Of a DNA stretch of 64,000 bases, positions 12,363-30,146 are shown one piece after another. How positions within the stretch are numbered: the stretch's first letter is position 1; the number at the start of each line of letters is the position of its first letter. Under the pieces are notes generated by a model, which made no database searches, had not been told where the DNA came from, and was given only the letters and a program-made list of their open reading frames with translations. Source of the stretch: Vicinamibacteraceae bacterium (GTDB lineage: Bacteria > Acidobacteriota > Vicinamibacteria > Vicinamibacterales > JAFNAJ01); NCBI GenBank assembly GCA_039812685.1, contig JBDIBB010000002.1, positions 17,291 to 81,290 of the forward strand. Direction: 5' to 3'. A program made the position numbers and the translations under genes.

Positions 12363-13340
12363 ATGCCGCTGCGTCCCGACGAGCTGTCCCTCCTGCTCGA
12401 GGCTCTCGCCGCGCTGCCCGCGGACTGGCACTCGGCCGGTTTCATCCCGATGCCCGGCGTCGAGGCGCTCGCCCGTCACGCCTCGGCGCGGCGGCTGACG
12501 CGCTCGATCGAGACCGGCGCAGGGCGCACCACCGTGCTGCTCTCGCACCTCAGCGAGCGTCACACGGTGTTCGCGCTGGATGGAGGCGACAGCCTGAAGC
12601 GCACGCGCGAGCACCCGCTGCTGAACCCCCACACGGTGGAGTTCATCGAGGGCCCGTCGCAGCGCACGATCTTCGAGTTCGCCGGCAGCGACCCACTCCA
12701 GCTCGTGCTGCTCGACGGCCCGCACGGCTTTCCCTTCCCCAATCTCGAGTACTGGCGGTTCTACCCGAGCCTCGAACCAGGGGGCCTGCTGGTCGTCGAC
12801 GACATCCACATCCCGACGATCCGGCTGCTGTTCGATTTCCTCGCCGAAGATCCCATGTTCCACCTGCTCGAGGTGGTCGGCCGGACAGCCTTCTTCGAGC
12901 GGACCGGGGCTCCCACGTTCGATCCCTTCGGCGATGGCTGGCTGCTCCAGCCCTTCAACTCGGCGCGATTTCCGACGGAGGCCCCCCTGACGGCCGGCCC
13001 GGCGCCCCCCGACTTCACGTACCGCAACCGGCTGCCAGTCCTCGCTGCCGCCTGGTGCGCCGCGGGCACCAGGATCGCCATCTTCGGAATTGGTCCGCAC
13101 ACCGACCACCTGTTTGCGGTCGTGCCTGAACTCGAGCAGGTCGAGATCGTGGCCTTTCTCGACTCGACCGCCGGCGGGACCGGACTGCGCTACCGCGGCA
13201 GGCCGGTGGAACGCCCGGCGTGGGCTCCGGGCCACGTCGACCTGGTGCTCTGCTCGTCGTTCCGGCACGAGTGGGCGCAGATCGAGATCCTCGACCGGCT
13301 GCCCGTCAAGGCGGTCTTCTCCCACCAGCCGGGGATCTGA
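12363..13340 (+). CDS. class I SAM-dependent methyltransferase (Methyltransf_24-like) with C-terminal NeuD/PglD-N-like Rossmann module
   Basis: VLLDGPHGFPFPNLEYWRFYPSLEPGGLLVVDDIH, then a C-terminal RIAIFGIGPHTDHL...VAFLDS...GRPV module. This is the real part of track ORF 11475..13340. Confidence 0.75.
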   Translation: MPLRPDELSLLLEALAALPADWHSAGFIPMPGVEALARHASARRLTRSIETGAGRTTVLLSHLSERHTVFALDGGDSLKRTREHPLLNPHTVEFIEGPSQRTIFEFAGSDPLQLVLLDGPHGFPFPNLEYWRFYPSLEPGGLLVVDDIHIPTIRLLFDFLAEDPMFHLLEVVGRTAFFERTGAPTFDPFGDGWLLQPFNSARFPTEAPLTAGPAPPDFTYRNRLPVLAAAWCAAGTRIAIFGIGPHTDHLFAVVPELEQVEIVAFLDSTAGGTGLRYRGRPVERPAWAPGHVDLVLCSSFRHEWAQIEILDRLPVKAVFSHQPGI

Positions 13341-13368
13341 GCGGGGCCCGGCAAACCCGGACACGACA

Positions 13369-14871
13369 TCAGGGGAGGGGGCTGCGCCACTCCCCCTTCT
13401 GCCAGCTCTCCGGCAGCGCATCGTGTTCCGGCGACAGGAGCCGCGCGCGGGGGAACAGCTCGATGCGGTCGCGGGGATAGCCCAGCGCCGTGAGGACGGC
13501 CAGCATCTCCTCGGGCCAGCAGGAGGCCAGCACGACGGCGTCGATCCCGAGTTCGAACACCTGGCCTGGCGCCAGGACGGGCCGGCCGTGAAGGCACTCG
13601 CCGCGCTTCCCTCGGGCCGAATCGAGAAACGCCACGGTGTCCATGAACGGCTGCAGCTCCGAGAACGCCCTCCGGCCTCCTTCGCCGGCGCCGAAGATGG
13701 CAATCCGCCGGCGCGGCCCCGCCGGCGCCCGCGGCCAGTCGGACTCGTCGGCCGCCGCACCGCCGGCTGCTTCCAGCAGGCGCTCGAGCTGGCGGAACGA
13801 CGTGCCGTACGCAAAGGCCTGAGCCCGGCCTGCTGCCGTGGTTCCCAGGCGTCCGGCCAGCGACCGATCCTGGAGGAGCCGTTCGATGCCCGATGCGAGC
13901 GCGCCGGCATCGTCGACGGCGACCAGCCAAGCGTGCCGGCCGTGGTCGGCCAGCTCCCGGTGAGGGCCGATGTCCGACAGGACGCACGGGCGGCCGGCGG
14001 CCATCGCCTCGATGACGGCAAACGGCGTCCCCTCGTACCGCGACGGCAGCACGAACACGTCAGCTGCCGCCAGGCACCGTTCGACGTCGTCGCGGTGGCC
14101 GATGAAGTGAACCGGCCCCCCGTGCGGGTGCCCGTCTCCGGTACCGGCCCAGACGAAGACGACATCCCGCCGCCTGCTCGAGACGATGGCGGCCGCTTCG
14201 ACGAGGATCTCCGGGGCCTTCTGCGGGTGCACGCGCGCCACGGTGAGGACGAGGCAGCCATCGTCGGGCACACCCAATTCGCGCCGGACCGCGGCTCTGG
14301 CCGCCGCCAGCCAGTCCGGCCCGCGCGGCGTTGCGGGGCGGAGACTGGAGTTCGGGACGACATCGATGGCGTCAGGCAGCCAGCCGAGCGCGGCGCGAAG
14401 ATCGTCACGGCTCGCCCGTGACACCGCGACGAAGCGCTGGCCGCGACGTCGCGCCGTGGTGTAGAGCAGGCGCTCGAAGCCGTTGAAGTTGTGGGGCACG
14501 GTCAACTGGAACACGACGACCGACGGCACGCCCGCCAGCACCGTCGCCTCGACGAGCCCGCCGCCGCTGTCGATGAACGGAAGGACGACCGCGGCCCGAT
14601 CGACGGCGCGCGCGCGCAGCCACTTGAAGCCGGCGCTGCGATTCCTGAGGAACGTCTCGTAGGTGAAGGGCTGCCCCTCCGGGACGAAGCCGGCCGGGGC
14701 GACGCCGATGCCGTGGCGCTCGAGCGCATGCGCCAGCCATGCCGCACCCTCCGCCTCGGGCAGGCCGACGGTCACCTCGTGCCCGCCCGCCCGGGCCCAG
14801 TCCGAGAGCGCGAGGACATACTCCTCGGCGCCGCCGCGGGCGAACGCGGGCGTGAGGAGGCCGAGCTTCAC
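13369..14871 (-). CDS. GT4-family glycosyltransferase with C-terminal NeuD/PglD-N-like module
   Basis: GT-B C-terminal motif VFVLPSRYEGTPFAVIEAMAAGRPCV, then RIAIFGAGEGGRRAF...VAFLDSARGKRGECLHGRPV. ATGA overlap with the upstream gene at 14868..14871. Confidence 0.85.
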   Translation of the reverse strand: MKLGLLTPAFARGGAEEYVLALSDWARAGGHEVTVGLPEAEGAAWLAHALERHGIGVAPAGFVPEGQPFTYETFLRNRSAGFKWLRARAVDRAAVVLPFIDSGGGLVEATVLAGVPSVVVFQLTVPHNFNGFERLLYTTARRRGQRFVAVSRASRDDLRAALGWLPDAIDVVPNSSLRPATPRGPDWLAAARAAVRRELGVPDDGCLVLTVARVHPQKAPEILVEAAAIVSSRRRDVVFVWAGTGDGHPHGGPVHFIGHRDDVERCLAAADVFVLPSRYEGTPFAVIEAMAAGRPCVLSDIGPHRELADHGRHAWLVAVDDAGALASGIERLLQDRSLAGRLGTTAAGRAQAFAYGTSFRQLERLLEAAGGAAADESDWPRAPAGPRRRIAIFGAGEGGRRAFSELQPFMDTVAFLDSARGKRGECLHGRPVLAPGQVFELGIDAVVLASCWPEEMLAVLTALGYPRDRIELFPRARLLSPEHDALPESWQKGEWRSPLP

Positions 14872-17702
14872 GCGCTCCGCTCCGCCACGCCCAGGATCAC
14901 GGCGAGCGCGCGCGCAGGATCGTGGGCGCGCGCCACCGCTGGCGCCGCCGCCGCCGCGGCCTCGCCCAGGACGTCGATGCGATCCAGGGCCCGCGCCACC
15001 GCTGCCGCGATCTCGGCGGGCGCCAGGCTCGCGAACCGTTCACCGGCACCGCGCCCCGCGTCGATCTGCGCACTCATCCACGTGCCATCGGGCACGATCA
15101 CGGGCCGGCCGGCCACCGTGGCGTCGACGAACACCGCGGACAGGCGATGGCGGTACTGCCCGGGTTCGTAGGGCAACAGCACGAGATCGCTGCCGGTCAC
15201 CAGTGCGTCGTATTCCCTGGACGGCAGGAATCGCTCGATCAGTTCGACGCCGGGCTGGCGACCCAGCGCCTCGATCGCCCGCCTGACGGAGTCATCCGCG
15301 AACTCGTTCCGGGCCGCGTGGCAGACGAGCGTCATCTCGCCGGCCGACAGCCGGGGTGCGAGGCGTTCGGCAATCCGCGGCAGCAGCGCGAACCCCTTGT
15401 CCGACCGCGCCTCGCCGGCGTAGAGCACGCGCGGCACGCGCCGCGGATCCCACGGGTCGGGACGGGCCCCGGCCTCGGCCGGAAATCCCATGGGCCACAC
15501 CTGCCGGTTGAACGTCATCTCGAGCGCGGGCGCCAGCGACTCGCACTGCGCAAGCAAGCGCAGGCCGTCGCCGGCGCTCTGCTCGATGCGCGCCAGCGTC
15601 AGCTGGCAGGCGTGGATGACTTCGTCCTCCGACACGCGCAGCCAGCGAGCCTCCTGCCACGGCAGGAAGTGAAAGAGGAACCGAACCGCCGGCCGCTCGT
15701 CCGGCGACAGCCCGTCGAGCCATGCCGCGGCGCCGAGCAGTTCCACCAGGTTCGCGGTGTGGAACAGCACCACGTCGCGGGCTCCCAGTCCGTGGCTGCT
15801 GCCGAGCGTAGCCAGGTCGTCGGCCAGGAACGCCGCGAAGCGGGCCACGGCGCGCCACGGGTCGTCAGCAGCCTCGGGAAGGAGGTCCCAGTGGGCGAAC
15901 TCGAAGGCCGGCACGAACAGCGCCAGTTCCTCCGGCTCCAGGCCGTCGAGCAGCCTCCGGCGCGCGCCTGCCACGACGACCTCGAGGTCGCGTGCCGCGG
16001 CATCAAGGAGCCGGGCCAGGCGCAGGAATGGCCCTCGGCTCCGGCCGGCGCTCGGCTCGGCCACCAGCAGTCTGCGCGCGGGCCGGCGGCCCGGCTGGGC
16101 TCGTTGCGCGGGGGGCTTCACCCGGGAACCCCCGAGCCGCGCGCGCAGCAGCGGCGTGATGAGCTCGTGACGATAGAGCGCGAGCGCGTGCCCGCCGCCC
16201 TCGCGGTACGCGGCGAGGTCCTGCCACATCTCCGCTTCGAACACCTGCGAGGAGAGGACGATGAACTCGTCGGCCGCCGCGACGAACGCGGCGGCAGGGA
16301 CGACCGGCAGCCCTTCCTCGCTCGATGCCCCGGCGTTGGCGCCCTTGTCGACGATCCGCCGCACGGGCACGCCGTGACGCTCGAGCCTGCGCAGCAGCTC
16401 GCGCGTGTGCGAACCGTTGCCCCAGATCGTGACCGGCGGCCTCGCCGCGGCCTCCCAGGCCGCGATCAGCCGCTGCTCGACCGCTGACGGAATGGCCCCG
16501 GGCTCGATCCGGTTCGTCGCCGCGTTCCGGATGACGTCCCCCAGCGCGCCGTAGCAGGCCGCTTCCGAGAAGCGCAGGGCCACGTGACGCCGGGCGGCCT
16601 GCCCGAGCGCGTGACGGGCATCGGGCGAGCCGAGCAGGCGGATCACCTCGCCAGCGAAACCCTCGGGCGTGTCCGCGATCGCCAGTTCGAAGCCATGCCT
16701 CAGATCGGTGCCCTCCGCCCCCACTCTCGTCGTCACGACGGGGCGGGCCGCGGCGGCGGCCTCGACGATCTTGATCTTCAGTCCGCTCCCGTAGAGATAT
16801 GGCGCGACGACCACCGCGGCGGCAGCCATCTCGCGGACGGGATCGTCGACCATGCCGACGAGGTCGACGCCGGGCGGCAGGCCGGCAACGCGCTGCGCCA
16901 TCGCCTCGGCGATCAGACCCACCAGGCGCAGCCGCGCGTGCGGGACCCGGGCGACCACCTGCGGCCACACGCGATCGAGCAGCCACCCCACCGCGTCGCG
17001 GTTCGACGGATTGTCGCTGCCCGCGTAGACGACCGTGCCGGGCGCTCCCGCGCCGGCTTCGACCGGCGGCACGGCGTGAGGCACGCAGAGCACGGTCTGG
17101 GACGGGCGCACCTGCGCCGCCACGAGCCGCGCCTCCTCGGGCGTGATGGCGAGCAGTACGTCCCAGGCGCGCCACAGATAGTGCTCGGTTCGCGCTTCCA
17201 TCGAATAGGGCGACGGCCGTCCCGTGGCCTCGCTCGCCCGGCGGCCATGCACGGCGATCACGTCGTGCAGGTCGACGATGCGGAGGACGCGACGGGGAAG
17301 CGGATCGAAGATTGGCGCCGTCCACGCGTAGGAAGACACCACCGCCGCGTAGTCCATGCCGTCGACCAGCGCGCGCACCAGCATCGTGAGCGCCGTCCCG
17401 GGCCACATGTTGGTCGGCACCGGAACGTATCCCTCGTAGAAGGCCTCGAACTGTCGCACGACGGCCTGGTCCTCCACGCTGCGCCACCCGTCGACGCGAA
17501 GCGTGCGGCGAAAGCCGTGGAAGCTGGCCTCCTGCGAGGCGACGCCCGGGTTCCCCTGGTAGACCAGGTCGAGGTCGAACCCCTGGCCCGACAGGAACGA
17601 GGCCATCGCCAGCACGCGCCGGATGTTGCCGTGGGCGAGCCGGTCCATGCACCAGGGAAAGACCATGAGCACCGCCGGCGCCGATCCGCCCCGTGCGGTC
17701 AT
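14868..17702 (-). CDS. 944-aa double glycosyltransferase (two GT-B halves separated by a NeuD/PglD-N-like module)
   Basis: N-terminal half has YGSGLKIKIVEAAAAARPVVTTRVGAEG. The centre has VTIWGNGSHTRELL...GLPVV. The C-terminal half has VLLPYEPGQYRHRLSAVFVDATVAGRPVIV. I place the start at MTARGGS (ATG 17702), which forms an ATGA overlap with the stop of the upstream gene. Confidence 0.75.
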   Translation of the reverse strand: MTARGGSAPAVLMVFPWCMDRLAHGNIRRVLAMASFLSGQGFDLDLVYQGNPGVASQEASFHGFRRTLRVDGWRSVEDQAVVRQFEAFYEGYVPVPTNMWPGTALTMLVRALVDGMDYAAVVSSYAWTAPIFDPLPRRVLRIVDLHDVIAVHGRRASEATGRPSPYSMEARTEHYLWRAWDVLLAITPEEARLVAAQVRPSQTVLCVPHAVPPVEAGAGAPGTVVYAGSDNPSNRDAVGWLLDRVWPQVVARVPHARLRLVGLIAEAMAQRVAGLPPGVDLVGMVDDPVREMAAAAVVVAPYLYGSGLKIKIVEAAAAARPVVTTRVGAEGTDLRHGFELAIADTPEGFAGEVIRLLGSPDARHALGQAARRHVALRFSEAACYGALGDVIRNAATNRIEPGAIPSAVEQRLIAAWEAAARPPVTIWGNGSHTRELLRRLERHGVPVRRIVDKGANAGASSEEGLPVVPAAAFVAAADEFIVLSSQVFEAEMWQDLAAYREGGGHALALYRHELITPLLRARLGGSRVKPPAQRAQPGRRPARRLLVAEPSAGRSRGPFLRLARLLDAAARDLEVVVAGARRRLLDGLEPEELALFVPAFEFAHWDLLPEAADDPWRAVARFAAFLADDLATLGSSHGLGARDVVLFHTANLVELLGAAAWLDGLSPDERPAVRFLFHFLPWQEARWLRVSEDEVIHACQLTLARIEQSAGDGLRLLAQCESLAPALEMTFNRQVWPMGFPAEAGARPDPWDPRRVPRVLYAGEARSDKGFALLPRIAERLAPRLSAGEMTLVCHAARNEFADDSVRRAIEALGRQPGVELIERFLPSREYDALVTGSDLVLLPYEPGQYRHRLSAVFVDATVAGRPVIVPDGTWMSAQIDAGRGAGERFASLAPAEIAAAVARALDRIDVLGEAAAAAAPAVARAHDPARALAVILGVAERSA

Positions 17703-18799
17703 GGCGCCGCGTTCCCGCACGCTGGCTGCCCATGACGCCGCGTCGCAAGGCAGAAGATGTTGTCGCCGCGGTCGGCTGCCGACGCGCCAGCCAGGTCGAG
17801 CGTCGCGAGCACCGCCGTGACGTCCGCCGGCGCATGCCATGACCAGACCGTCTCGATCCGGTCGACTTCGAAGCCGGCGGCATCGAGCCGGCGGCGAAGC
17901 TCCGTGACGGTCATCTCCCTCACGTGCGGCGCGTAGACCATGGGCGGTTCATGCCTGAGGATGCGCTCGATGGCGAGCGTGCCGGCGGCGTTGGGCGTCG
18001 TGCAGAACAGGCGCCCCCCGGGGCGCAGCACGCGGCGGCACTCGGCCAGGCACGACGTGACGCCGCTCCAGGTCCGCATCGTCCGCCCCCAGTAGTCGCG
18101 GTTGTCCTCGTCACGATCCTTCAGGTGTTCGAGGACCTCCATGTTCAGGACGAGGTCGACCGAATCGTCCGGTAACCCGAATGGGTATCTCAGGTCGCCG
18201 TCGGTCGCCGAGGCCGCCACACCCCACGTCTGTTCGAGGAAGTCGAGCACGACCGATCGTCCGCCGACCTCCAGTACCGACATACCGGGTGCGATCACCG
18301 GCCGCAGCCACTTCAGGGAGTCGATATAGCGCCGGCGGTGCGCCTGGAGGTACTCCGTCTGATCCGCCGCCTGGAGGAATGTCAGAAATGGATCGTCGCC
18401 GGAGGGATTGCCGGCGGCTGTCGGCGCGAGCGTGGTGACGCCGAGGTGCGAGGGGATCACCTTCAGCGGGACGCCATCGAACACCGCCATCTGGGCCAGT
18501 TCGTGTGCGAACGACGAACAGAGGACCACGTCGCAATGGCCTGCCGCCCATGACGGCGGGCGCACCGGCAGGCCGCGGAAGGTTCGCTCGTCGTCAGCCG
18601 CATCCGACTCCAGGAACGCCACGAGCCCCGTGCGGGCCAGTTCGGGGACGGCCTCGAGCAGGTACTCGGTGTGGGCTCCGGTGCCGAAGATGGCGACGCG
18701 CGCGCCGCTGCGCGCCCAGGATCGCGCGAGGGGCACGAGCCGCGTGCGATACGCCTGGTCGGCCCCGGCTGTACGAAACTGGCTCGTCATGACCATCAC
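17699..18799 (-). CDS. class I SAM-dependent methyltransferase with N-terminal NeuD/PglD-N-like module
   Basis: N-terminal RVAIFGTGAHTEYLL...VAFLESD...GLPV. Methyltransferase core VLEVGGRS...VDLVLNMEVLEHL...LRPGGRLFCTTPN. Confidence 0.8.
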   Translation of the reverse strand: MMVMTSQFRTAGADQAYRTRLVPLARSWARSGARVAIFGTGAHTEYLLEAVPELARTGLVAFLESDAADDERTFRGLPVRPPSWAAGHCDVVLCSSFAHELAQMAVFDGVPLKVIPSHLGVTTLAPTAAGNPSGDDPFLTFLQAADQTEYLQAHRRRYIDSLKWLRPVIAPGMSVLEVGGRSVVLDFLEQTWGVAASATDGDLRYPFGLPDDSVDLVLNMEVLEHLKDRDEDNRDYWGRTMRTWSGVTSCLAECRRVLRPGGRLFCTTPNAAGTLAIERILRHEPPMVYAPHVREMTVTELRRRLDAAGFEVDRIETVWSWHAPADVTAVLATLDLAGASAADRGDNIFCLATRRHGQPACGNAAP

Positions 18800-19923
18800 G
18801 GGTGATGCGGCGCGTCGAGCACCGACCGGTAGACCGCCTCGATCCGTGCGACGGTTCGCGCCCAGGCATAGCGACGCGCCACGAGCGCTTTCGCGCGCCT
18901 GGCGATCACGGACCGCTTCCCGTCACTCAGCGCGCGGACGATTTGCCGGCCCGCGCTGACGGCGCTCCCGTCGAGCCCGAAGCCGTTGATGCCTGGCCGC
19001 AGGTAGTCCTCGATGCCCGGGACGATGCGGGCCGCCACGGGGACGCCCAGTGCCATGGCCTCGAGGACGGCGATCCCCTGCCCTTCATCGCGTGACAGCG
19101 ACACGAACAGGTCCCATCGCCTCACCCGCGCGAGCGCGTTCCGGACGTACCCGGTAAGGGTGACGGCGTCGGTCAGCCCGAGGCGTGACACTTCGCGGCC
19201 GACCGCCTGCCCGTATGCCGGATCGGCCGTGGGCCCGACCAGCTCCAGCGTGGCGGCGGGAAGTGCCCGGCGCACGTGGGCAAAGGCCCGGACCACGTCG
19301 AGTTGCGCCTTGCGCGGCTCGATGCGGCCGACGCATCCCACCCGCCGGCCGGACGCGAGAGGCGTGGCCACCGCGGCGACATCCAGAGGCGGAAGTCCCC
19401 ACTCGATCCGGATGAGCCTCCTTCGCGCCACGCCCGCCGCGAGCAGGTGCGACTCGTACGCCGTCGCGGTGCAGAGCACGCGGTCTGCGAGGCGATGCCC
19501 GGCGAAATCCATGTCGTTCATCCAGGGCGGGCGTCCCGGAGCCCAGCTGTGGACCTGGCTCACGATTGGAAGTCGCCGGCCGCCGCGCCCGCGGCACAGC
19601 GTGGCGGCGCACGTGGGCACGCCGGCATGGGCGTGCACGACGTCAGGCTGCCACGTGTCGATGAGGCGCTGGAGGATCGCGACCCCACGCCAGAACACTT
19701 CCGGCTGCCGATCGAACAGATCAATCCGCGCGTGGTCGATGCCCGCCTCGGCAAGCCGCCGCCGATACGGTTTCCAGTCGCGAAGCCCCCGCGACGACCC
19801 GCTCGTGACGACCATCACCTCATTGGTGGCGGCCTGCGAGACGCACAGGGCGGTGATCACCCGCCCGGCGCCGCTCCAGAGGAACGGCGCCATCTGCAGG
19901 ACGCGCAAGCGGCTCGACATCAT
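18796..19923 (-). CDS. GT4-family glycosyltransferase
   Basis: RVLQMAPFLWSGAGRV, VVHAHAGVP, GRIEPRKAQ and LFVSLSRDEGQGIAVLEAMALGVPV. I place the start at MMSSRL (19923); the track ORF start at 20100 adds an Arg-rich non-protein-like leader. Confidence 0.85.
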   Translation of the reverse strand: MMSSRLRVLQMAPFLWSGAGRVITALCVSQAATNEVMVVTSGSSRGLRDWKPYRRRLAEAGIDHARIDLFDRQPEVFWRGVAILQRLIDTWQPDVVHAHAGVPTCAATLCRGRGGRRLPIVSQVHSWAPGRPPWMNDMDFAGHRLADRVLCTATAYESHLLAAGVARRRLIRIEWGLPPLDVAAVATPLASGRRVGCVGRIEPRKAQLDVVRAFAHVRRALPAATLELVGPTADPAYGQAVGREVSRLGLTDAVTLTGYVRNALARVRRWDLFVSLSRDEGQGIAVLEAMALGVPVAARIVPGIEDYLRPGINGFGLDGSAVSAGRQIVRALSDGKRSVIARRAKALVARRYAWARTVARIEAVYRSVLDAPHHP

Positions 19924-20105
19924 GGGAAGGCAGTGTGGTCGCGAGCAGGCTCGACCCGCGTCACGTCGCCTCGCGTGCCAGAGCGGGGTGGGGTGACGAC
20001 CCCTCCGGCAGGTCCCGCCAGGACTCGGCGCGCGCCGGCAGTCGCGAGTCTTATCGGCCCTCGGAGGCCCGGTCTGCAGCCAGCCCCCCGGCCCGCACAC
20101 GATGC

Positions 20106-20124
20106 GCCGCCCGTTGCGGGCGGC
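20106..20124 (-). terminator. GC-rich hairpin 5 nt after the DUF115 gene stop (no U-tract)
   Basis: Minus-strand RNA GCCGCCCG-CAA-CGGGCGGC forms an 8-bp stem. It lies in the only long (205 nt) gap of the glycosylation operon. Confidence 0.3.
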
Positions 20125-20128
20125 CAGC

Positions 20129-21319
20129 TCACGGACCGCACAGCCCGTCGAGGTCGGCGACCACGATGGAATCAGCAGCCCGGCCCCGGCCGGTCAGCCA
20201 CGTGACGATCTCCGCATGGTGCACCGAGGCCACGAGCACTACGGCCTCGCGCCAGCGATCCTCGTCGAGTTGCGCGGGCGGCGCCACCATCACGCCGTGC
20301 AGTCTGCCGCCGGCCTTCTCTGGATCGGCATCCACGACGAGGTCGATTCGCGGTCCGAGGCCGTCGAGCAACGCCGCGACCCCGCGACCGCCGCTGCCTG
20401 CTCCCCACAGCGCGAGCCGGCGGCGTGTGCCTCCCGGCCCTCCGGTTGCTCGCGTCGCGATGCGCAGGCGCAGGGCCAGGTGCCGGGCCGCGCGCTGCCG
20501 TGCCGTGGCGCGCGCGCCGCCCGGCCAGTCGGCGCCCGGACGCGCGAGCGTCACCGCCTCATCGAGCGTCACACGCTCGAGCGCCTCGACGCGTCCGCCC
20601 CGCGTGGCGTTGAGCAGCGCGACGCCGCGGCGCGCCAGCTCACGGCCGAACCAGACGAAGGCCGGCCTCGCGTGTGTCTCGTAGTCGAACCCGGGATTGG
20701 TGTGGGTCACGTTCCCGGCGAAGTGGGTCAGGGGCCCGGTGTAGTCCATGTCGACGCCGAGCAGGACGATGGTGTCCGCACCGAGGAACACGGCCAGCTG
20801 AATGGCGGCGAAGATGACCGAATGGCCGGCGTGCTCGATCGCCTGGCCGAGGTCGAGACCTGACGTGAACCCGACGTGCGGTTCGACGTCCCAGCCACCG
20901 TCCTGCCGTGGCGACAACCATGGCTTCGACCAGAGCACGCAGGCGCCAGGATGACGGTCGACGAGGGCCAGCCAGTCCGTCGTCAGACGGTTCGGGGCCA
21001 CGACGGTCGGCCCCCGACCGGCTGACAGTTCGCCGAGCAGTTCCTCGGCCCGCGCGTTGTCGGTGACGATCTGCCATCGGCTCGCGACGCGGGTGCCGGT
21101 GAGGAACCGGTGCGCATGGTTCGTGCAGATGACGTGACACCCCTCCAGCCGCGACGGATCCTCGTCACGCAGGGAGGGGCCCGCCCCCAGGCAGAACACC
21201 ACCTGGCCCGCGAGCGAGCCCGCGTGCCGGCGTAACGCCGCGTGACCGCGTGCCGAACGCTCGCGGTAAGCCTCGATCAGGCGTAGCGCCGCCCGCAGGC
21301 GCTCTCCCCCGCCGCCCAT
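20129..21319 (-). CDS. Maf/DUF115 (MptE-like) family glycosyltransferase-like protein with C-terminal NeuD/PglD-N-like module
   Basis: FCLGAGPSL...VICTN...HSVIFAAIQLAVFLGADTIVLLGVDMDY is the DUF115 pattern. C-terminal RLALWGAGSGGRGVA...LVVDADPEKAGGRLHGVMV. Start MGGGGE at 21319 shares 1 nt with the upstream stop (TGATG). Confidence 0.7.
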   Translation of the reverse strand: MGGGGERLRAALRLIEAYRERSARGHAALRRHAGSLAGQVVFCLGAGPSLRDEDPSRLEGCHVICTNHAHRFLTGTRVASRWQIVTDNARAEELLGELSAGRGPTVVAPNRLTTDWLALVDRHPGACVLWSKPWLSPRQDGGWDVEPHVGFTSGLDLGQAIEHAGHSVIFAAIQLAVFLGADTIVLLGVDMDYTGPLTHFAGNVTHTNPGFDYETHARPAFVWFGRELARRGVALLNATRGGRVEALERVTLDEAVTLARPGADWPGGARATARQRAARHLALRLRIATRATGGPGGTRRRLALWGAGSGGRGVAALLDGLGPRIDLVVDADPEKAGGRLHGVMVAPPAQLDEDRWREAVVLVASVHHAEIVTWLTGRGRAADSIVVADLDGLCGP

Positions 21320-25764: not shown

Positions 25765-25797
25765 CGCGAACGCGGGGCCGGGCGCGGCTCGACGGCC

Positions 25798-25803
25798 TAT
25801 AAT
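25798..25803 (+). promoter_or_regulatory. -10 box TATAAT, 6 nt upstream of the mntA GTG
   Basis: CCTATAATCGCGTCGTG. The sequence is fixed by overlapping track translations (PIIASW on plus, TTRL-stop on minus). Confidence 0.45.
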
Positions 25804-25809
25804 CGCGTC

Positions 25810-26217
25810 GTGGATCCGGACGAGATCGACGTGCTGCGCGATCTGCTGGCGCGCACTGCTGGGCCCGACGTCGTCGCGGCCTGGCTGTTCGGAAGCCACG
25901 GCCGCGGCCAGGCAGGGCCCTCCAGTGACATCGACCTCGCGCTGCTCCGCACCTCCGCGCCGACGACGCTCGACTGCCTCCCGGACGCCCTCGCGGGGGC
26001 CGTCGAGCAGCGAATGCGGGCCGAGGTAGACCTGGTGGTGCTCAACGCCGCATCGCCCGATCTGGTGCATCGAGTGCTCCGGGACGGGATCCTGTTGCTC
26101 GAGCGCGACCGCCCGGCGCGCATCGCCTTCGAGGTCCGGGCGCGCAACGCGTACTTCGACCTGCAGCCGGTGCTCGCGCGTTACCGCCGCGGCCCCGCCC
26201 GCGAGATGCACCGATGA
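25810..26217 (+). CDS. mntA: nucleotidyltransferase-domain antitoxin (MntA-type, type VII TA)
   Basis: WLFGSHGRGQAGPSSDIDLALL is the minimal NTase GS...DxD motif. ATGA overlap with the downstream DUF86 gene. Confidence 0.8.
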   Translation: MDPDEIDVLRDLLARTAGPDVVAAWLFGSHGRGQAGPSSDIDLALLRTSAPTTLDCLPDALAGAVEQRMRAEVDLVVLNAASPDLVHRVLRDGILLLERDRPARIAFEVRARNAYFDLQPVLARYRRGPAREMHR

Positions 26218-26624
26218 CCGACCCCGAACTGGTACTGAAGAAGATCGCGGTCGTCGAGACGTGCGTCATCGAGCTGCAGCGCCTGGCTCGGCCGGATCGG
26301 CTCGCGGACGACATCAAGGAGCGGCGCTTCGTCGAGCGGACACTGCAGGTGGCGCTGCAAGCGGTACTGGATGTCTGCTCGCACATTGTCTCGGACGAGC
26401 GGCTTGGCGAGCCCGCGACCAACCGGGACCTCGTGCGCACCCTCGCCGTGCACGGGTGGCTCAGCGCCAGGCTCGGCGACACGCTCCAGAAGATGGTGGG
26501 CTTCCGGAACATCCTCGTCCATGACTACGACGACGTGAACGTGGGCATCCTGCGCTCGATCGTGGAACGCCACCTCGTTGATCTCGAGGCGTTCGCCGCG
26601 CAGGTGCGCAGCCGGCTCTCCTGA
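26214..26624 (+). CDS. hepT: HepT-like (DUF86) RNase toxin
   Basis: About 136 aa, with the RNILVHDY (Rx4HxY) motif near the C-terminus. Confidence 0.8.
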   Translation: MTDPELVLKKIAVVETCVIELQRLARPDRLADDIKERRFVERTLQVALQAVLDVCSHIVSDERLGEPATNRDLVRTLAVHGWLSARLGDTLQKMVGFRNILVHDYDDVNVGILRSIVERHLVDLEAFAAQVRSRLS

Positions 26625-26644: not shown

Positions 26645-29443
26645 TCAGGATCCCTGCGCGCCCTGCAGCGTCCGCGCCGTTCCGGCCAGCGACAGGTGCG
26701 CCCGCACCACCTCCTCGCCGGCATCGAAGGCACAGCGGAACCCCACCTTCTCCGACACGCGCTGCATGTCGCGGTTCTCGGGCAGGATGTCGGCGACGAT
26801 CGCATCGAGCCCTTCGTCGCGCCCGACCTCCACCACGCGGCGCAGCAGCTCGGTTCCAAGGCCCGAGCCCTGCCAGTCGTCACTGATCGTCACGGCGAAC
26901 TCGCCGACGTTCGTGCCGCGCTGCTTGGTGAGCCGGCCCACGCCCACGATGAACGGCTGTCCCGCGGGGTCACGCCCCTCGGCCACCAGCGCCATGTCGC
27001 GGTCGTAGTCGATGAAGCAGATCCGCGTGAGCCGCTCGTGGGCGATGCGCTGCCCGAGCTTCATGATGTGGAAATAGCGGAAGTAGACCGACCGTTCCGA
27101 GAGCGTCTCGTGGAACCGGGCGATGAGCGGTTCGTCCTCGGGGCGAATCGGGCGGATGAGGAGACGCTGGCCCCGCCTGGTGGTGAACTCGCCGATGTAC
27201 TGCGCGGGATACGGCCGGATCGCCGGCCGCGGCAGCTCGCCCTCGCGCACCTCGGGCCCGTGGACGACGATGCGCGCGTCGAGCGCCAGCAGCCCGTCGG
27301 ATGAGGCGACGAGCGGGTTGACGTCGATCTCGCGGATCCATGGCTGCTCGACCACGAGGTGGCTGAAGCGCACGAGCAGCTGATCGAGTGCGTCGAGATC
27401 GACCGAGGGCTCGCCGGCCCCGCCCTTCAGCGCGTCGAGCACGCGTGTGTGCTCCATCAGCCGGCGCGCCAGCGTGGTGTTGAGCGGCGGCAGGCCCAGC
27501 GCGCGATCGCGCGAGGCCTCCACGTACTTGCCGCCCTGTCCGAAGAGCAGCACAGGCCCGAACTGCGGGTCCGGCGACGCGCCGAGAATCAGCTCGTGGC
27601 CGTCGAGCTTCACCATCGGCTGAACGGTGACGCCCTGGAAGTGCCCCTCTCCCGCGTGCTCGGCCACGGCCCGCGCGATGCCGTCGAAGCCGGTCCGCAC
27701 GGCGGCTTCGTCGCCGAGACCAAGCCGCACGCCGCCGGCGCGGCGCTTGTGCGCGATCGTCGGCGAGTGCACCTTGAGCACGACCGGGAAGCCCAGACCG
27801 ATGGCGTGTGACACCGCCTCGTCTGCGGTGCGCGCCACCAGCGTCTCGACGACGGGGATCCCGTAGGCGGCCAGCACGGCCTTGGACTCGGCCTCGGTGA
27901 GTTGCGTGCGGCCCGAGGCGCGTGCGCCGAGCAGCACGGCTTCCGCCCGGCCCTTCGCGCGGGCGTGCGCGCCGTCCTGCCCGCCCGGCAGCACCGGTGT
28001 CTCGTAGAGCGCGCGCAGACTGCGGCTGTGCCGCCACATGTAGGCGAACATGCGGGCCGCGGTGTCGGGATACGGAAAGGTCGGCACGCCGTGACGGTTG
28101 AGGATCCCGACGCCATCGGCCACGCCGGGTCCGCCCATCCAGCTTGCGAGCACCGGCTTGCCGGGGACCGTCGCCAGCGCCCCGATCCGCCCGGCGGTCG
28201 CGGTCGGGTCGGTGGCGGCCTGCGGCGCGAGGATCACGAGCAGGCCATCGCTGCCGGGGTCCTTCGCGGCCGCCTCCAGCACGCGCGCGTAGCGCTCGGG
28301 GGTGGCCTCGCCGAGCACGTCGATCGGGTTGCCGCGGCTCCAGGTCGCGGGCAGCAGCGTGTCGAGCGCGGCCACCGTCGCCTCGCCGAGTTCGGCGAGT
28401 TGCCCGCCGCTGCCGACCAGGGCGTCCACGGCCAGCACGCCGGGGCCGCCCGCGTTGGTGACGACCGTGAGGCGGGGCCCGCGCGGTCGGGGCTGCTTCG
28501 AGAGCACCTCGGCCATGTAGAACAACTCGGCAACCGAGTCGACGCGCAGCACTCCCGATCGGCGCAGCGCGGCGTCCAGCACGTCGTCGCTGCCGGTGAG
28601 CGCGCCGGTGTGGCTGGCCGCGGCCCGGGCGGCCGCGGCGGTGCGTCCCGCCTTCATCACGATGATCGGCTTGGTGAGCGCCACCTCACGCGCGGCCGAC
28701 AGGAAGTAGCGCGCGTCGCCGATCGACTCCATGTAGATGACGATGCTGCGCGTGCGCGCGTCGTGGCCGAAGTAGTCGATCAGGTCGCCCCAGCCGACGT
28801 CGGCCATCGAGCCCACCGACACGAAGTGGCTGAAGCCCACGTTCTCGCTGAAGCTCCAGTCGAGCACCGCGGCGCACAGCGCGCCGCTCTGGCTGATGAA
28901 CGCGACGCTGCCGGGCCGCGCCATGCCCGCCGCGAAGCTGGCGTTGAGCCCGGTCACCGTCGACATCACGCCGAGGCAGTTCGGGCCGACCACGCGCATG
29001 CGATGGGCACGCGCGCGGGCGGTCAACTCCCGCTCGAGCGCCAGACCTCCTTCGCCCGCCTCGCGAAACCCCGCCGACACCACGATCGCGGCCGATACGC
29101 CGATGGCCCCGCATCCGGAGACCACGTCGGGCACGGCCTGCGCCGGCGTCACCACCACCGCGAGGTCGGGCACCTCCGGCAGGTCGGTGACCGACGCGTA
29201 CGCGCGGATGCCGAGCACGTGGCTCCGCTTCGGGTTCACCGGGAACACCGTGCCGCCGAACGGGCTGCCGATCAGGTTCCAGAGGATCGCGCGACCCACG
29301 CTGCCGGCCGCTTCGCTCGCGCCGATGACGGCCACACCCCTGGGGCGGAAGATGGCGTCCAGCGGCAGGCGCGGATGTCCGGTCGCGCGTGGCTTCAGCG
29401 GCTTGCCGGTGTCGCCCTGCGCAGGCGGAAGCACGGAGCTCAT
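26645..29443 (-). CDS. bifunctional ADP-forming acetyl-CoA synthetase-like / GNAT protein acetyltransferase (Pat/PatZ type)
   Basis: N-terminal CoA-binding [20 protein letters not shown], succinyl-CoA-synthetase-like and ATP-grasp regions, and a C-terminal GNAT ([19 protein letters not shown]). I place the start at MSSVLPP (29443); the track ORF extends to 30055 over the DinB gene. Confidence 0.9.
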
Positions 29444-29645
29444 GATGGCGTCGCCTCCGGGGGCTCGCGCGGCCGCACGGCGCCTGGCGGCGCCGCCGGG
29501 GCCGGCGATGCTCACAGCATACCGCCGCGCGCCGGCGCCCCGGCCTTCGCCACCGCGCGCCGCGCAGTATACTTGCGGCGCACCTGCTGACAGCTTCCGC
29601 CTGCGGAGACCCGCTGCCCCGCCGGGGCGGCCAGGAGGGCCGGAG

Positions 29646-30146
29646 ATGGCCATCAAGGACGCGCTGCTGCCGGAGTTCGATCGCGAGATGGCGGTCACAC
29701 GGACACTGCTGGCCCGCACGCCCCTGGAAGAGGCCGACTGGCGGCCGCATCCGCGGTCGATGTCGCTCGGGTCGCTGGCCGGCCACCTCGTCGACATCCC
29801 GGGCTGGGCGCCGGTGATCCTGCAGCAGGATCGCTTCGTCATGAACGAGGACGGTGACGGGGCCGCATCGAAGTACACGAGCACGGACGCGATGCTGGCG
29901 GATTTCGATCGCAACGTCGCGAGGGCGCGCGAGCTGATCGATGCCGCCGGCGACGCCCACCTCGTGCAGCCGTGGACGCTCGAGCAGGACGGCGAGACGC
30001 TGCTGACCATGCCGCGCCTCGCCGTGGTGCGCGCGTTCCTCTTCAGCCATGCCATCCACCACCGCGGCCAGCTCTCGGTCTACCTGCGGCTGCGCGAGGT
30101 GAGAATCCCGTCGATCTACGGGCCGAGCGCAGACGATCCCCTCTGA
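29646..30146 (+). CDS. DinB family protein
   Basis: 166 aa with the C-terminal [14 protein letters not shown] motif typical of the DinB/DinB_2 four-helix bundle. AGGAGGG Shine-Dalgarno upstream. Confidence 0.8.

Follow-up and report, generated by a model that had tools for sequence, protein, structure and literature searches.

The stretch of Vicinamibacteraceae DNA analysed here (64,000 nucleotides of contig JBDIBB010000002.1, referred to as the window) contains an eight-gene island in which five of the eight enzymes carry a copy of the same autonomous domain of about 90 amino acids (aa), hereafter the module. The copies are designated A to E, like the genes that carry them. They are found on methyltransferases, on glycosyltransferases (GTs) and on a weakly MptE-like protein. 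The reading that we favour, with modest confidence, is that the module is a nucleotide-binding accessory domain serving coordination or feedback, probably together with dimerisation; motif conservation and the analogy with an accessory domain of the phosphoglycosyl transferase (PGT) WbaP point to it.

Five copies of one autonomous domain in the island

The original prediction had described five paralogous segments of about 90 aa on five enzymes of the island. All of them translate as quoted there, and the refined cores depart from the coordinates given at that time by about 30 nt at most. The refined copies, with the E-values of the external hidden Markov model (HMM) described below, are the following:

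13059-13325, + strand: module copy A, C-terminus of the Methyltransf_24 protein, subtype A/D; GxG loop IFGIGPHT and FLDS kept (E 6.3e-24)
13459-13716, - strand: module copy B, C-terminus of the GT4 (E 1.1e-26)
16179-16448, - strand: module copy C, WGNGSHTR subtype, located in the 944-aa protein between its two GT-like halves (E 3.8e-23)
18446-18712, - strand: module copy D, N-terminus of the Methyltransf_23/11 protein (E 1.6e-28)
20159-20428, - strand: module copy E, C-terminus of the weakly MptE-like (Maf-like) protein (E 3.1e-22)

The external HMM was built from 209 module instances of other organisms, after removal of the window's own and near-identical sequences. It matches exactly these five sites of the window, with E-values from 1.6e-28 to 3.1e-22, and its next match (E 0.018) is the genuine FAD/NAD Rossmann loop (GxGxxG) of an NDH-2-like gene. 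HMM searches of the six-frame translation did not reveal a sixth copy in the window.

It had to be considered that there is no real module, and that the segments resemble each other by composition (high GC, rich in Ala, Gly and Arg) or through a generic GxG motif; a likeness of composition only was what the original prediction itself had named as speaking against it. The G+C content of the window, 72%, would suit such an explanation, as would the fact that BLASTP finds no significant pairwise match between copy C and the other four copies. Nevertheless, BLASTP relates copies A and D (50% identity along 95 aa, E 2e-29) as well as B and E (38% identity, E 4e-5), the A-B match being borderline (E 0.017). 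As pairwise comparison left copy C unconnected with the other four, its membership was settled by the external HMM and by leave-one-out HMMs. The latter were built from the other four copies and run on the six-frame translation of the window (614 pieces). Each time, the omitted copy was the best non-training match (A, 2e-17; B, 6e-8; C, 4.8e-6; D, 6e-18; E, 3e-8), while the background lay at E 0.01 or worse. The recovery of all five copies, the distance between the five external-HMM sites (E 1e-22 to 1e-28) and the next match, the existence of 2,887 relatives and a confident fold model refute chance or compositional similarity, which can be practically dismissed.

The closest relatives of copy C (50-57% identity) come from C-type proteins elsewhere, in which they have the same location. 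Relatives from outside the island are closer to each copy (55-62% identity) than its nearest island paralogue (A-D, 50%). A recent duplication within the island is thereby ruled out, and the five copies represent old subtypes: three or four subtypes are gathered in these eight genes.

Directly upstream of the module, copies A and D are preceded by a helix motif, YRxRLxPLxxxW (at 13020-13058, + strand, for A and at 18713-18751, - strand, for D), which is invariant in all A/D relatives. It accompanies the module both at the C-terminal (A) and at the N-terminal (D) position, and is absent from subtypes B, C and E.

Fold and solved relatives

Copy B was modelled with AlphaFold2 (AF2) from a 100-sequence alignment. 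The model is confident (predicted local distance difference test, pLDDT, 91.9; predicted template modelling score, pTM, 0.84), and the order of its elements, β1, Gly-loop, αA, β2, β3, α, β4, α, β5, is that of a small Rossmann-type fold.

Comparison of the family profile with the Protein Data Bank (PDB) gave 98 matches at E≤10, and the results that follow refer to the best 60 of these 98. The best solved match is 3NKL (E 1.7e-14), which aligns along 91 profile positions, nearly the whole length; it is also the top match of the copy B model in Foldseek (E 2e-6). When scored against Pfam, the 3NKL fragment reaches 26.7 bits with CoA_binding_3 (cut-off 25) and gives weaker scores with CoA_binding and PglD_N. 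Further profile matches are Rex (E 2e-5; Foldseek TM-score 0.60-0.64), VioB (E 1e-4; Foldseek TM-score 0.69 with 7TXP), PerB (E 1.3e-4), residues 44-116 of the FkbM methyltransferase structure 2PY6 (E 1e-3), the PglB/PglD-like 4M98 and 4M9C (E 0.02-0.05) and the TylC3-type C-methyltransferase 4RV9 (E 0.08). 2PY6 is a solved structure that already holds a related domain N-terminal to a methyltransferase. The third Foldseek match is 2G6T (CAC2185), with a TM-score of 0.73 and 1.9 Å root-mean-square deviation.

The module had been likened in the original prediction to the N-terminal Rossmann domain of PglD/NeuD. The likeness holds at the superfamily level, as indicated by the AF2 fold and by the profile matches to VioB and PerB, but the closest relative is 3NKL/CoA_binding_3, and PglD_N is more distantly related to the module.

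The conserved ligand crevice and the favoured explanation

The most conserved positions of the family are G16 (99%), G18 (94%), D40 (90%), G52 (83%), P54/V55 (63%/80%) and S73 (80%). They are found along the C-terminal edge of the sheet, where a Rossmann fold canonically has its ligand crevice, and correspond to Ser13, Asp35 and Asp36 of PglD. The latter residues contact the UDP-sugar (UDP, uridine diphosphate), the PglD-type N-terminal domain being a UDP binding platform (PMC8040287). Of 213 instances, 193 (91%) retain the GxG loop together with an acidic β2 end, as do all five window copies, which makes nucleotide binding the likeliest function. The idea that the module binds a nucleotide-sugar or a carrier, or else acts as an assembly domain, had already been put forward on first reading of the DNA; it is plausible, and motif conservation favours the binding of a nucleotide.

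What such a site might be for is suggested by PF13727 (CoA_binding_3), the 'DUF' of WbaP and of PglF-like dehydratases. Isolated, the WbaP DUF is stabilised by UMP, UDP and UTP; it makes up most of the dimer interface, full-length WbaP is inhibited by UMP (half-maximal inhibitory concentration, IC50, 4.1 µM), and a DUF-mediated negative feedback has been proposed for PGTs and PglF-like dehydratases (PMC10942596). On the favoured reading, each copy of the module would bind a nucleotide with a free ribose diol, a candidate being the nucleoside mono- or diphosphate (NMP/NDP) part of a nucleotide-activated sugar or of its by-product, by means of the GxG loop that follows β1 and of the acidic residue that ends β2. 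Each enzyme would thereby gain a nucleotide site apart from its catalytic site, and by analogy with the WbaP DUF this additional site would be used for feedback or for coordinating the pathway, probably with dimerisation, and not for catalysis. As the module is common to five of the eight enzymes of the island, it is conceivable that the pathway responds to a single shared ligand.

The crevice also raises the alternative that the module is a Rex-like sensor, in which a bound pyridine dinucleotide (NAD(P)(H)) would couple glycan synthesis to the redox state. A GxGxxG loop combined with an acidic β2 end is the classical NAD signature, the profile and Foldseek matches to Rex given above fit such a role, and some copies pass the Pfam threshold of GFO_IDH_MocA (P0028, 38.7 bits versus 24). 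Nonetheless, the closest relatives are domains of sugar pathways (3NKL/CoA_binding_3, PglD_N, Methyltransf_14), a module of about 90 aa lacks both the C-terminal swap helix of Rex and the second half of the dinucleotide-binding fold, and its fusion partners are all glycan enzymes. We consider redox sensing improbable.

Several points weigh against nucleotide-dependent feedback as we favour it. GT-B and class-I methyltransferase domains already bind nucleotide cofactors of their own, and the need for a second site is not obvious. The signature formed by GxG and the acidic β2 end suits NAD(H), as in Rex, equally with UMP, UDP or cytidine monophosphate (CMP), and the tandem and stand-alone copies described below suit a scaffold equally with a sensor. 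Scans of the modules and of their host proteins leave all five window copies below every curated threshold of Pfam and NCBIfam, so that their placement rests on profile and fold similarity. WbaP and PglF chains are not among the best 60 of the 98 PDB matches, and the link to the WbaP DUF therefore runs via 3NKL and the Pfam family. Finally, when a natural stand-alone di-module protein was modelled with AF2 (13-sequence alignment), two confident domains were obtained whose mutual packing is not confident (pTM 0.54); dimerisation is thus unsupported by this model. Foldseek searches with it gave single-domain matches only. The model speaks weakly against an obligate intramolecular pair and is silent on intermolecular pairing.

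Size and architecture of the module family

An exhaustive profile search was run against 1.84 billion representatives (clusters at 50% identity). It gave 2,887 relatives at E≤1e-3, 137 of them at E≤1e-10; an earlier word-indexed homologue search had returned 17 matches, mostly fragments. The module family is widespread in uncultured bacteria. Copy number and position were determined in the best 140 relatives: 65 have one copy, 71 two and four three, and the copies are N-terminal (46), internal (91) or C-terminal (82). When two copies are present they are mostly in tandem, 20-45 residues apart. Stand-alone proteins also exist, of 98-134 aa with a single module and of 201-249 aa with two. Both the stand-alone proteins and the variable position characterise the module as an autonomous domain.

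Five tandem relatives (P0057, P0087, P0091, P0139 and P0153) have a degenerate glycine loop in the first copy (GTD, GAD) and an intact loop in the second. Such a pattern would be expected if one site of a pair had turned non-binding.

Current annotation covers the family poorly. Pfam (E≤0.01) assigns 100 sampled module instances to Methyltransf_14 (18), PglD_N (12), CoA_binding (3) and CoA_binding_3 (1), and the remainder to nothing; about 70% of the instances have no match. The module is most aptly regarded as a distinct and largely unannotated family of the CoA_binding_3 / PglD_N / Methyltransf_14 / C2185-like_N / Rex lineage, with a new range of partners. A description of this fusion pattern was not found in the literature on PF13727, PF17836, PF08484 and PF22674. 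In the JGI data, some module-only proteins are labelled 'FlaA1/EpsC-like NDP-sugar epimerase', a label that probably arises from the module alone.

These data bear on a further explanation, substrate recruitment in cis. According to it, the module would hold the nucleotide handle of the NDP- or CMP-sugar that is the enzyme's own substrate, and would form part of the active site, as in PglD, VioB, PerB and TcaB9/TylC3. The C-terminal domain of TcaB9 binds the dTDP-sugar. The matches of family instances to Methyltransf_14 and PglD_N agree with this possibility, as does the UDP platform of PglD-type proteins (PMC8040287), and nucleotide-linked sugars are conceivable substrates of methyltransferases A and D. 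However, about half of the best relatives (71 of 140) carry tandem copies, and stand-alone proteins have no catalytic domain at all. It is hard to square a fixed part of an active site with a module that is N-terminal, C-terminal or internal on the same enzyme classes; furthermore, the donor of a GT-B enzyme is already bound between the enzyme's own pair of Rossmann domains. Recruitment in cis is thus a minority possibility, and tandem, stand-alone and positionally variable copies fit better the regulatory or dimerising accessory domain that we favour; in this they may be likened to small-ligand regulatory domains which occur in pairs.

Partner enzymes and module loci in other genomes

The original prediction had proposed to check whether other genomes also combine the module with these enzyme families; that they do is strongly supported both by fusions and by syntenic loci. 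Partner domains were identified in 93 relatives. GT1/GT4 domains (25) are the most frequent, followed by GT2 (9) and several methyltransferase classes (about 8-10 each); LicD (3), FkbM (3), WbsX (2) and radical SAM/SPASM (2; SAM, S-adenosylmethionine) also occur. For almost all of these partners, a nucleotide-activated substrate is what they use or modify. Enzyme classes encoded separately in the window are fused in giant single chains of metagenomic origin: P0034 (1502 aa) combines modules with MptE-like, GT4 and Methyltransf_24 domains, and P0025 (2006 aa) combines three modules with two GT2, one GT4 and one methyltransferase domain. P0033 has the order Methyltransf_24, module, GT4, module.

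Genome collections were scanned with an alignment of the A/D subtype. Fifteen loci were obtained, 11 of them in Acidobacteriota metagenome-assembled genomes (MAGs) of about 70% GC; the scan of the collection with protein C gave no matches. The Acidobacteriota loci contain orthologues of gene A, of the N-terminal half of gene C, of gene X (the island GT4 without a module) and of the big Maf protein, with bit scores of about 250-450, and each 20-kb syntenic locus has two to five modules. Two of them (L008:5636-13639 and L009:4819-10360) hold three to five modules each, and include module hosts that are absent from the window, among them a protein with a GT99 N-domain and a Capsule_synth (KpsC/S-like) protein with an N-terminal module. 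These partners suggest chemistry of the CMP-Kdo type (Kdo, 3-deoxy-D-manno-oct-2-ulosonic acid). The other such hosts at these two loci are two Methyltransf_24 proteins, an 853-aa protein without a Pfam match and a split form of gene C consisting of GT plus module. At another, unrelated locus (L022:10001-13451), a stand-alone di-module protein of 237 aa lies directly downstream of motA/motB; after it come a GT2, a protein of 503 aa that has a module at its N-terminus (Pfam C2185-like_N) and a second GT2, so that three modules are found within 2.3 kb. This locus may be a flagellar or surface glycosylation cluster.

Multiplicity of this kind is what would be expected of an assembly or docking domain, by which modules would pair as homo- or heterodimers and hold the enzymes of the pathway in a complex, nucleotide binding being vestigial or secondary. 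Modules are nearly always multiple: five in the island, two to five in the syntenic loci, three at the motA/motB locus, and a tandem pair in every second relative. Elsewhere this set of enzymes is joined into single chains in which modules lie between catalytic domains (P0034, P0025), the WbaP DUF and the Rex domain, both related to the module, form dimer interfaces, and glycan assembly complexes are known in which modules are variably split over single- and multi-module proteins (PMC11231755). Yet the strongest conservation is at the ligand crevice and not at a surface patch, the two domains of the di-module model do not pack confidently, and Foldseek recognises them only singly. We regard docking as the main function as unlikely. 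A combined form, in which the module would be a pathway-wide handle that pairs with other modules, so assembling the five enzymes into one line, and that also senses a common nucleotide by-product throttling the whole line, is doubtful as well.

Genes of the island and its surroundings

The island is flanked by a pyruvate dehydrogenase/LemA block and by an aminotransferase plus MNT/HepT pair. Gene limits were set from frame-specific GC at third codon positions (GC3) and from the gene calls on identical public contigs. The eight genes are:

12363-13340, + strand: gene A, Methyltransf_24 (Pfam PF13578, E 6e-7) followed by module copy A; 325 aa
13369-14871, - strand: gene B, GT4 (Pfam Glyco_transf_4 and Glycos_transf_1) followed by module copy B; 500 aa
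14868-17702, - strand: gene C, GT1-type domain, module copy C and a divergent second GT-like half (Pfam Glyco_trans_1_4 in two stretches); 944 aa
17699-18796, - strand: gene D, module copy D followed by a class-I SAM methyltransferase (Pfam Methyltransf_23 and Methyltransf_11); 365 aa
18796-19923, - strand: gene X, GT4 without a module, by Pfam, an island member; 375 aa
20129-21322, - strand: gene E, weakly MptE-like N-terminal part (Pfam, sub-cut-off) followed by module copy E; 397 aa
21319-22005, - strand: distant PseF-like cytidylyltransferase without a module (NCBIfam PseF, E 2.6e-13, 50 bits versus a cut-off of 205.7; Pfam CTP_transf_3, E 4e-4); 228 aa
22061-24496, - strand: MptE-like (Maf-type) plus methyltransferase protein without a module (Pfam MptE-like, E 4e-32, 111.7 bits, which passes 34.6; Methyltransf_25/12/11); 811 aa

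The host enzymes had been named beforehand from the sequence alone. The methyltransferases, the GT4 and the double glycosyltransferase were correctly recognised, while the DUF115/Maf label of gene E is weak: its MptE-like score (PF01973) is 27.3 bits, below the gathering cut-off of 34.6, and covers only the last 34 profile positions (136-169). A PDB sequence search gave no relative for the N-terminal part of gene E and nothing meaningful for the C-terminal half of gene C; the latter aligns with the GT region of the N-terminal half of the same protein.

The island is present in identical form on many metagenome assemblies and in one NCBI MAG. An identical 325-aa protein is on record for gene A, and a gene of the same size is called on the identical contigs. 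Genes B, D and E match the relatives P0018 (module at residues 379-483), P0019 (module at residues 23-127) and P0020, respectively, and gene C is 96% identical across the module region to P0021, the module of which spans residues 412-519. None of the five module proteins bears a public name in the cluster look-up. Gene X has no module match in HMM searches, and its orthologues are syntenic in the Acidobacteriota loci; orthologues of the 811-aa Maf-type protein are present in the syntenic loci as well.

We infer that the product of the island may be a glycan with a CMP-activated ulosonic acid, decorated by methylation, because a PseF-like cytidylyltransferase and Maf/MptE-like proteins are encoded here and GT99 and KpsC/S-like partners are encoded in the syntenic loci. 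Among the genes scanned (window 1-39069), no nonulosonic-acid or Kdo synthase gene was seen.

The minus-strand run of the island is otherwise tightly packed and overlapping, and is interrupted by a gap of 205 nt between genes E and X (19924-20128), which may be the site of an internal promoter. At the right edge of the island, a Polbeta/MNT-type nucleotidyltransferase gene (25765-26214, + strand) is followed by a HepT-like gene (to 26620), which is also called on the identical contigs; 25765-26620 is an MNT/HepT toxin-antitoxin pair. Next to it, 26648-30079 (- strand) encodes a protein of 1144 aa in which CoA_binding, Succ_CoA_lig and ATP-grasp_5 (ADP-forming acyl-CoA synthetase type) are joined to a GNAT acetyltransferase at the C-terminus, a fusion that has the architecture of a Pat-like protein acetyltransferase.

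Relation to known systems and significance

Five known systems were compared with the module, which is homologous to the CoA_binding_3 and PglD_N domains and, by analogy, probably works as they do. CoA_binding_3 (PF13727) is the cytoplasmic 'DUF' of the large phosphoglycosyl transferases WbaP and CpsE and of NDP-sugar dehydratases of the WbpM/PglF/CapD type, with 3NKL as a solved example. It shares with the module a small Rossmann core, the GxG loop, a 'VaFlDdd' β2 strand and a 'G.pV' motif, and it is likewise an accessory, non-catalytic domain on enzymes of glycan pathways. Nevertheless, the window copies have no PF13727 match at E≤10 (threshold 25 bits), and one of the 100 family instances matches at E≤0.01. 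There is neither a four-helix membrane bundle before the module nor a PGT or short-chain dehydrogenase/reductase (SDR) partner, Pfam detecting no Bac_transf or Polysacc_synt_2 domain in the host proteins, and a β-hairpin swap element is not evident. The hosts of the module are soluble GT, methyltransferase and Maf-like enzymes, on which its position varies and tandem copies are frequent.

PglD_N (PF17836), the N-terminal domain of the sugar N-acetyltransferases NeuD/PglD/VioB/PerB (TIGR03570), has in common with the module the fold class, the GxG loop and the acidic β2 end, the acidic pair of which contacts UDP in PglD. The AF2 topology agrees, and GxG with D or E at the end of β2 is found in all five window copies; di-module relatives match TIGR03570, along its first ~63 positions only. 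Copy D gives the best PglD_N score (12.0 bits, E 0.33, versus a gathering threshold of 23.4), the other four copies having no match at E≤10. As stated in the original prediction, the acyltransferase part is missing: no left-handed β-helix (hexapeptide) follows the module, and no Hexapep family is detected by Pfam in any of the five hosts.

Methyltransf_14 (PF08484), the C-terminal domain of NDP-sugar C-methyltransferases of the TylC3/TcaB9 type, is an accessory beside a methyltransferase, like the module in genes A and D. Family instances match this Pfam model more often than any other (best E 1.3e-10), and some relatives pass its threshold (P0058, 34.8 bits). The match is nonetheless limited to positions ~50-150 of the 160-position model, and copy E, at 11.9 bits (E 0.19), stays below the gathering threshold of 23.5. 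The partner methyltransferases are of the Methyltransf_24 and Methyltransf_23/11 classes and not of the TylC3 type, and GTs and a Maf-like protein are partners too.

C2185-like_N (PF22674), the N-terminal domain of Clostridium acetobutylicum CAC2185 (PDB 2G6T), resembles the module in fold, with the TM-score of 0.73 given above. Precomputed Pfam lists place PF22674, mostly as 'faint' matches, on most di-module relatives and on several fusions with methyltransferase, GT2 or radical-SAM domains. The records of the five window proteins do not list it, and the local Pfam scans never returned it, even at E≤1-10; either every match is faint or the local Pfam copy lacks the model.

Rex and CoA_binding (PF02629) share with the module a small Rossmann nucleotide-binding domain, and Rex is a sensor that also dimerises. 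It is distinguished by a winged-helix DNA-binding domain, a C-terminal swap helix and NADH as ligand, and is not linked to glycan enzymes. PF02629 does not match the window copies, and their host proteins contain no DNA-binding domain.

A large family linked to glycan enzymes (at least 2,887 clusters at 50% identity) is thus mostly missed by current annotation, and a dedicated profile would correct mis-annotations such as the epimerase label on module-only proteins. Should the module be a nucleotide sensor or a dimerisation handle like the WbaP DUF, the feedback idea formulated for PGTs and PglF-type dehydratases would extend to glycosyltransferases, methyltransferases and Maf-type enzymes, and the island offers a compact test bed. 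If the doubtful combination of pairing and sensing were true, it would provide an organising principle for soluble glycan-tailoring enzymes, across thousands of proteins of uncultured bacteria, comparable to the docking domains of polyketide synthases and nonribosomal peptide synthetases (PKS/NRPS) or to the coiled-coil proteins that act as rulers in O-antigen systems.

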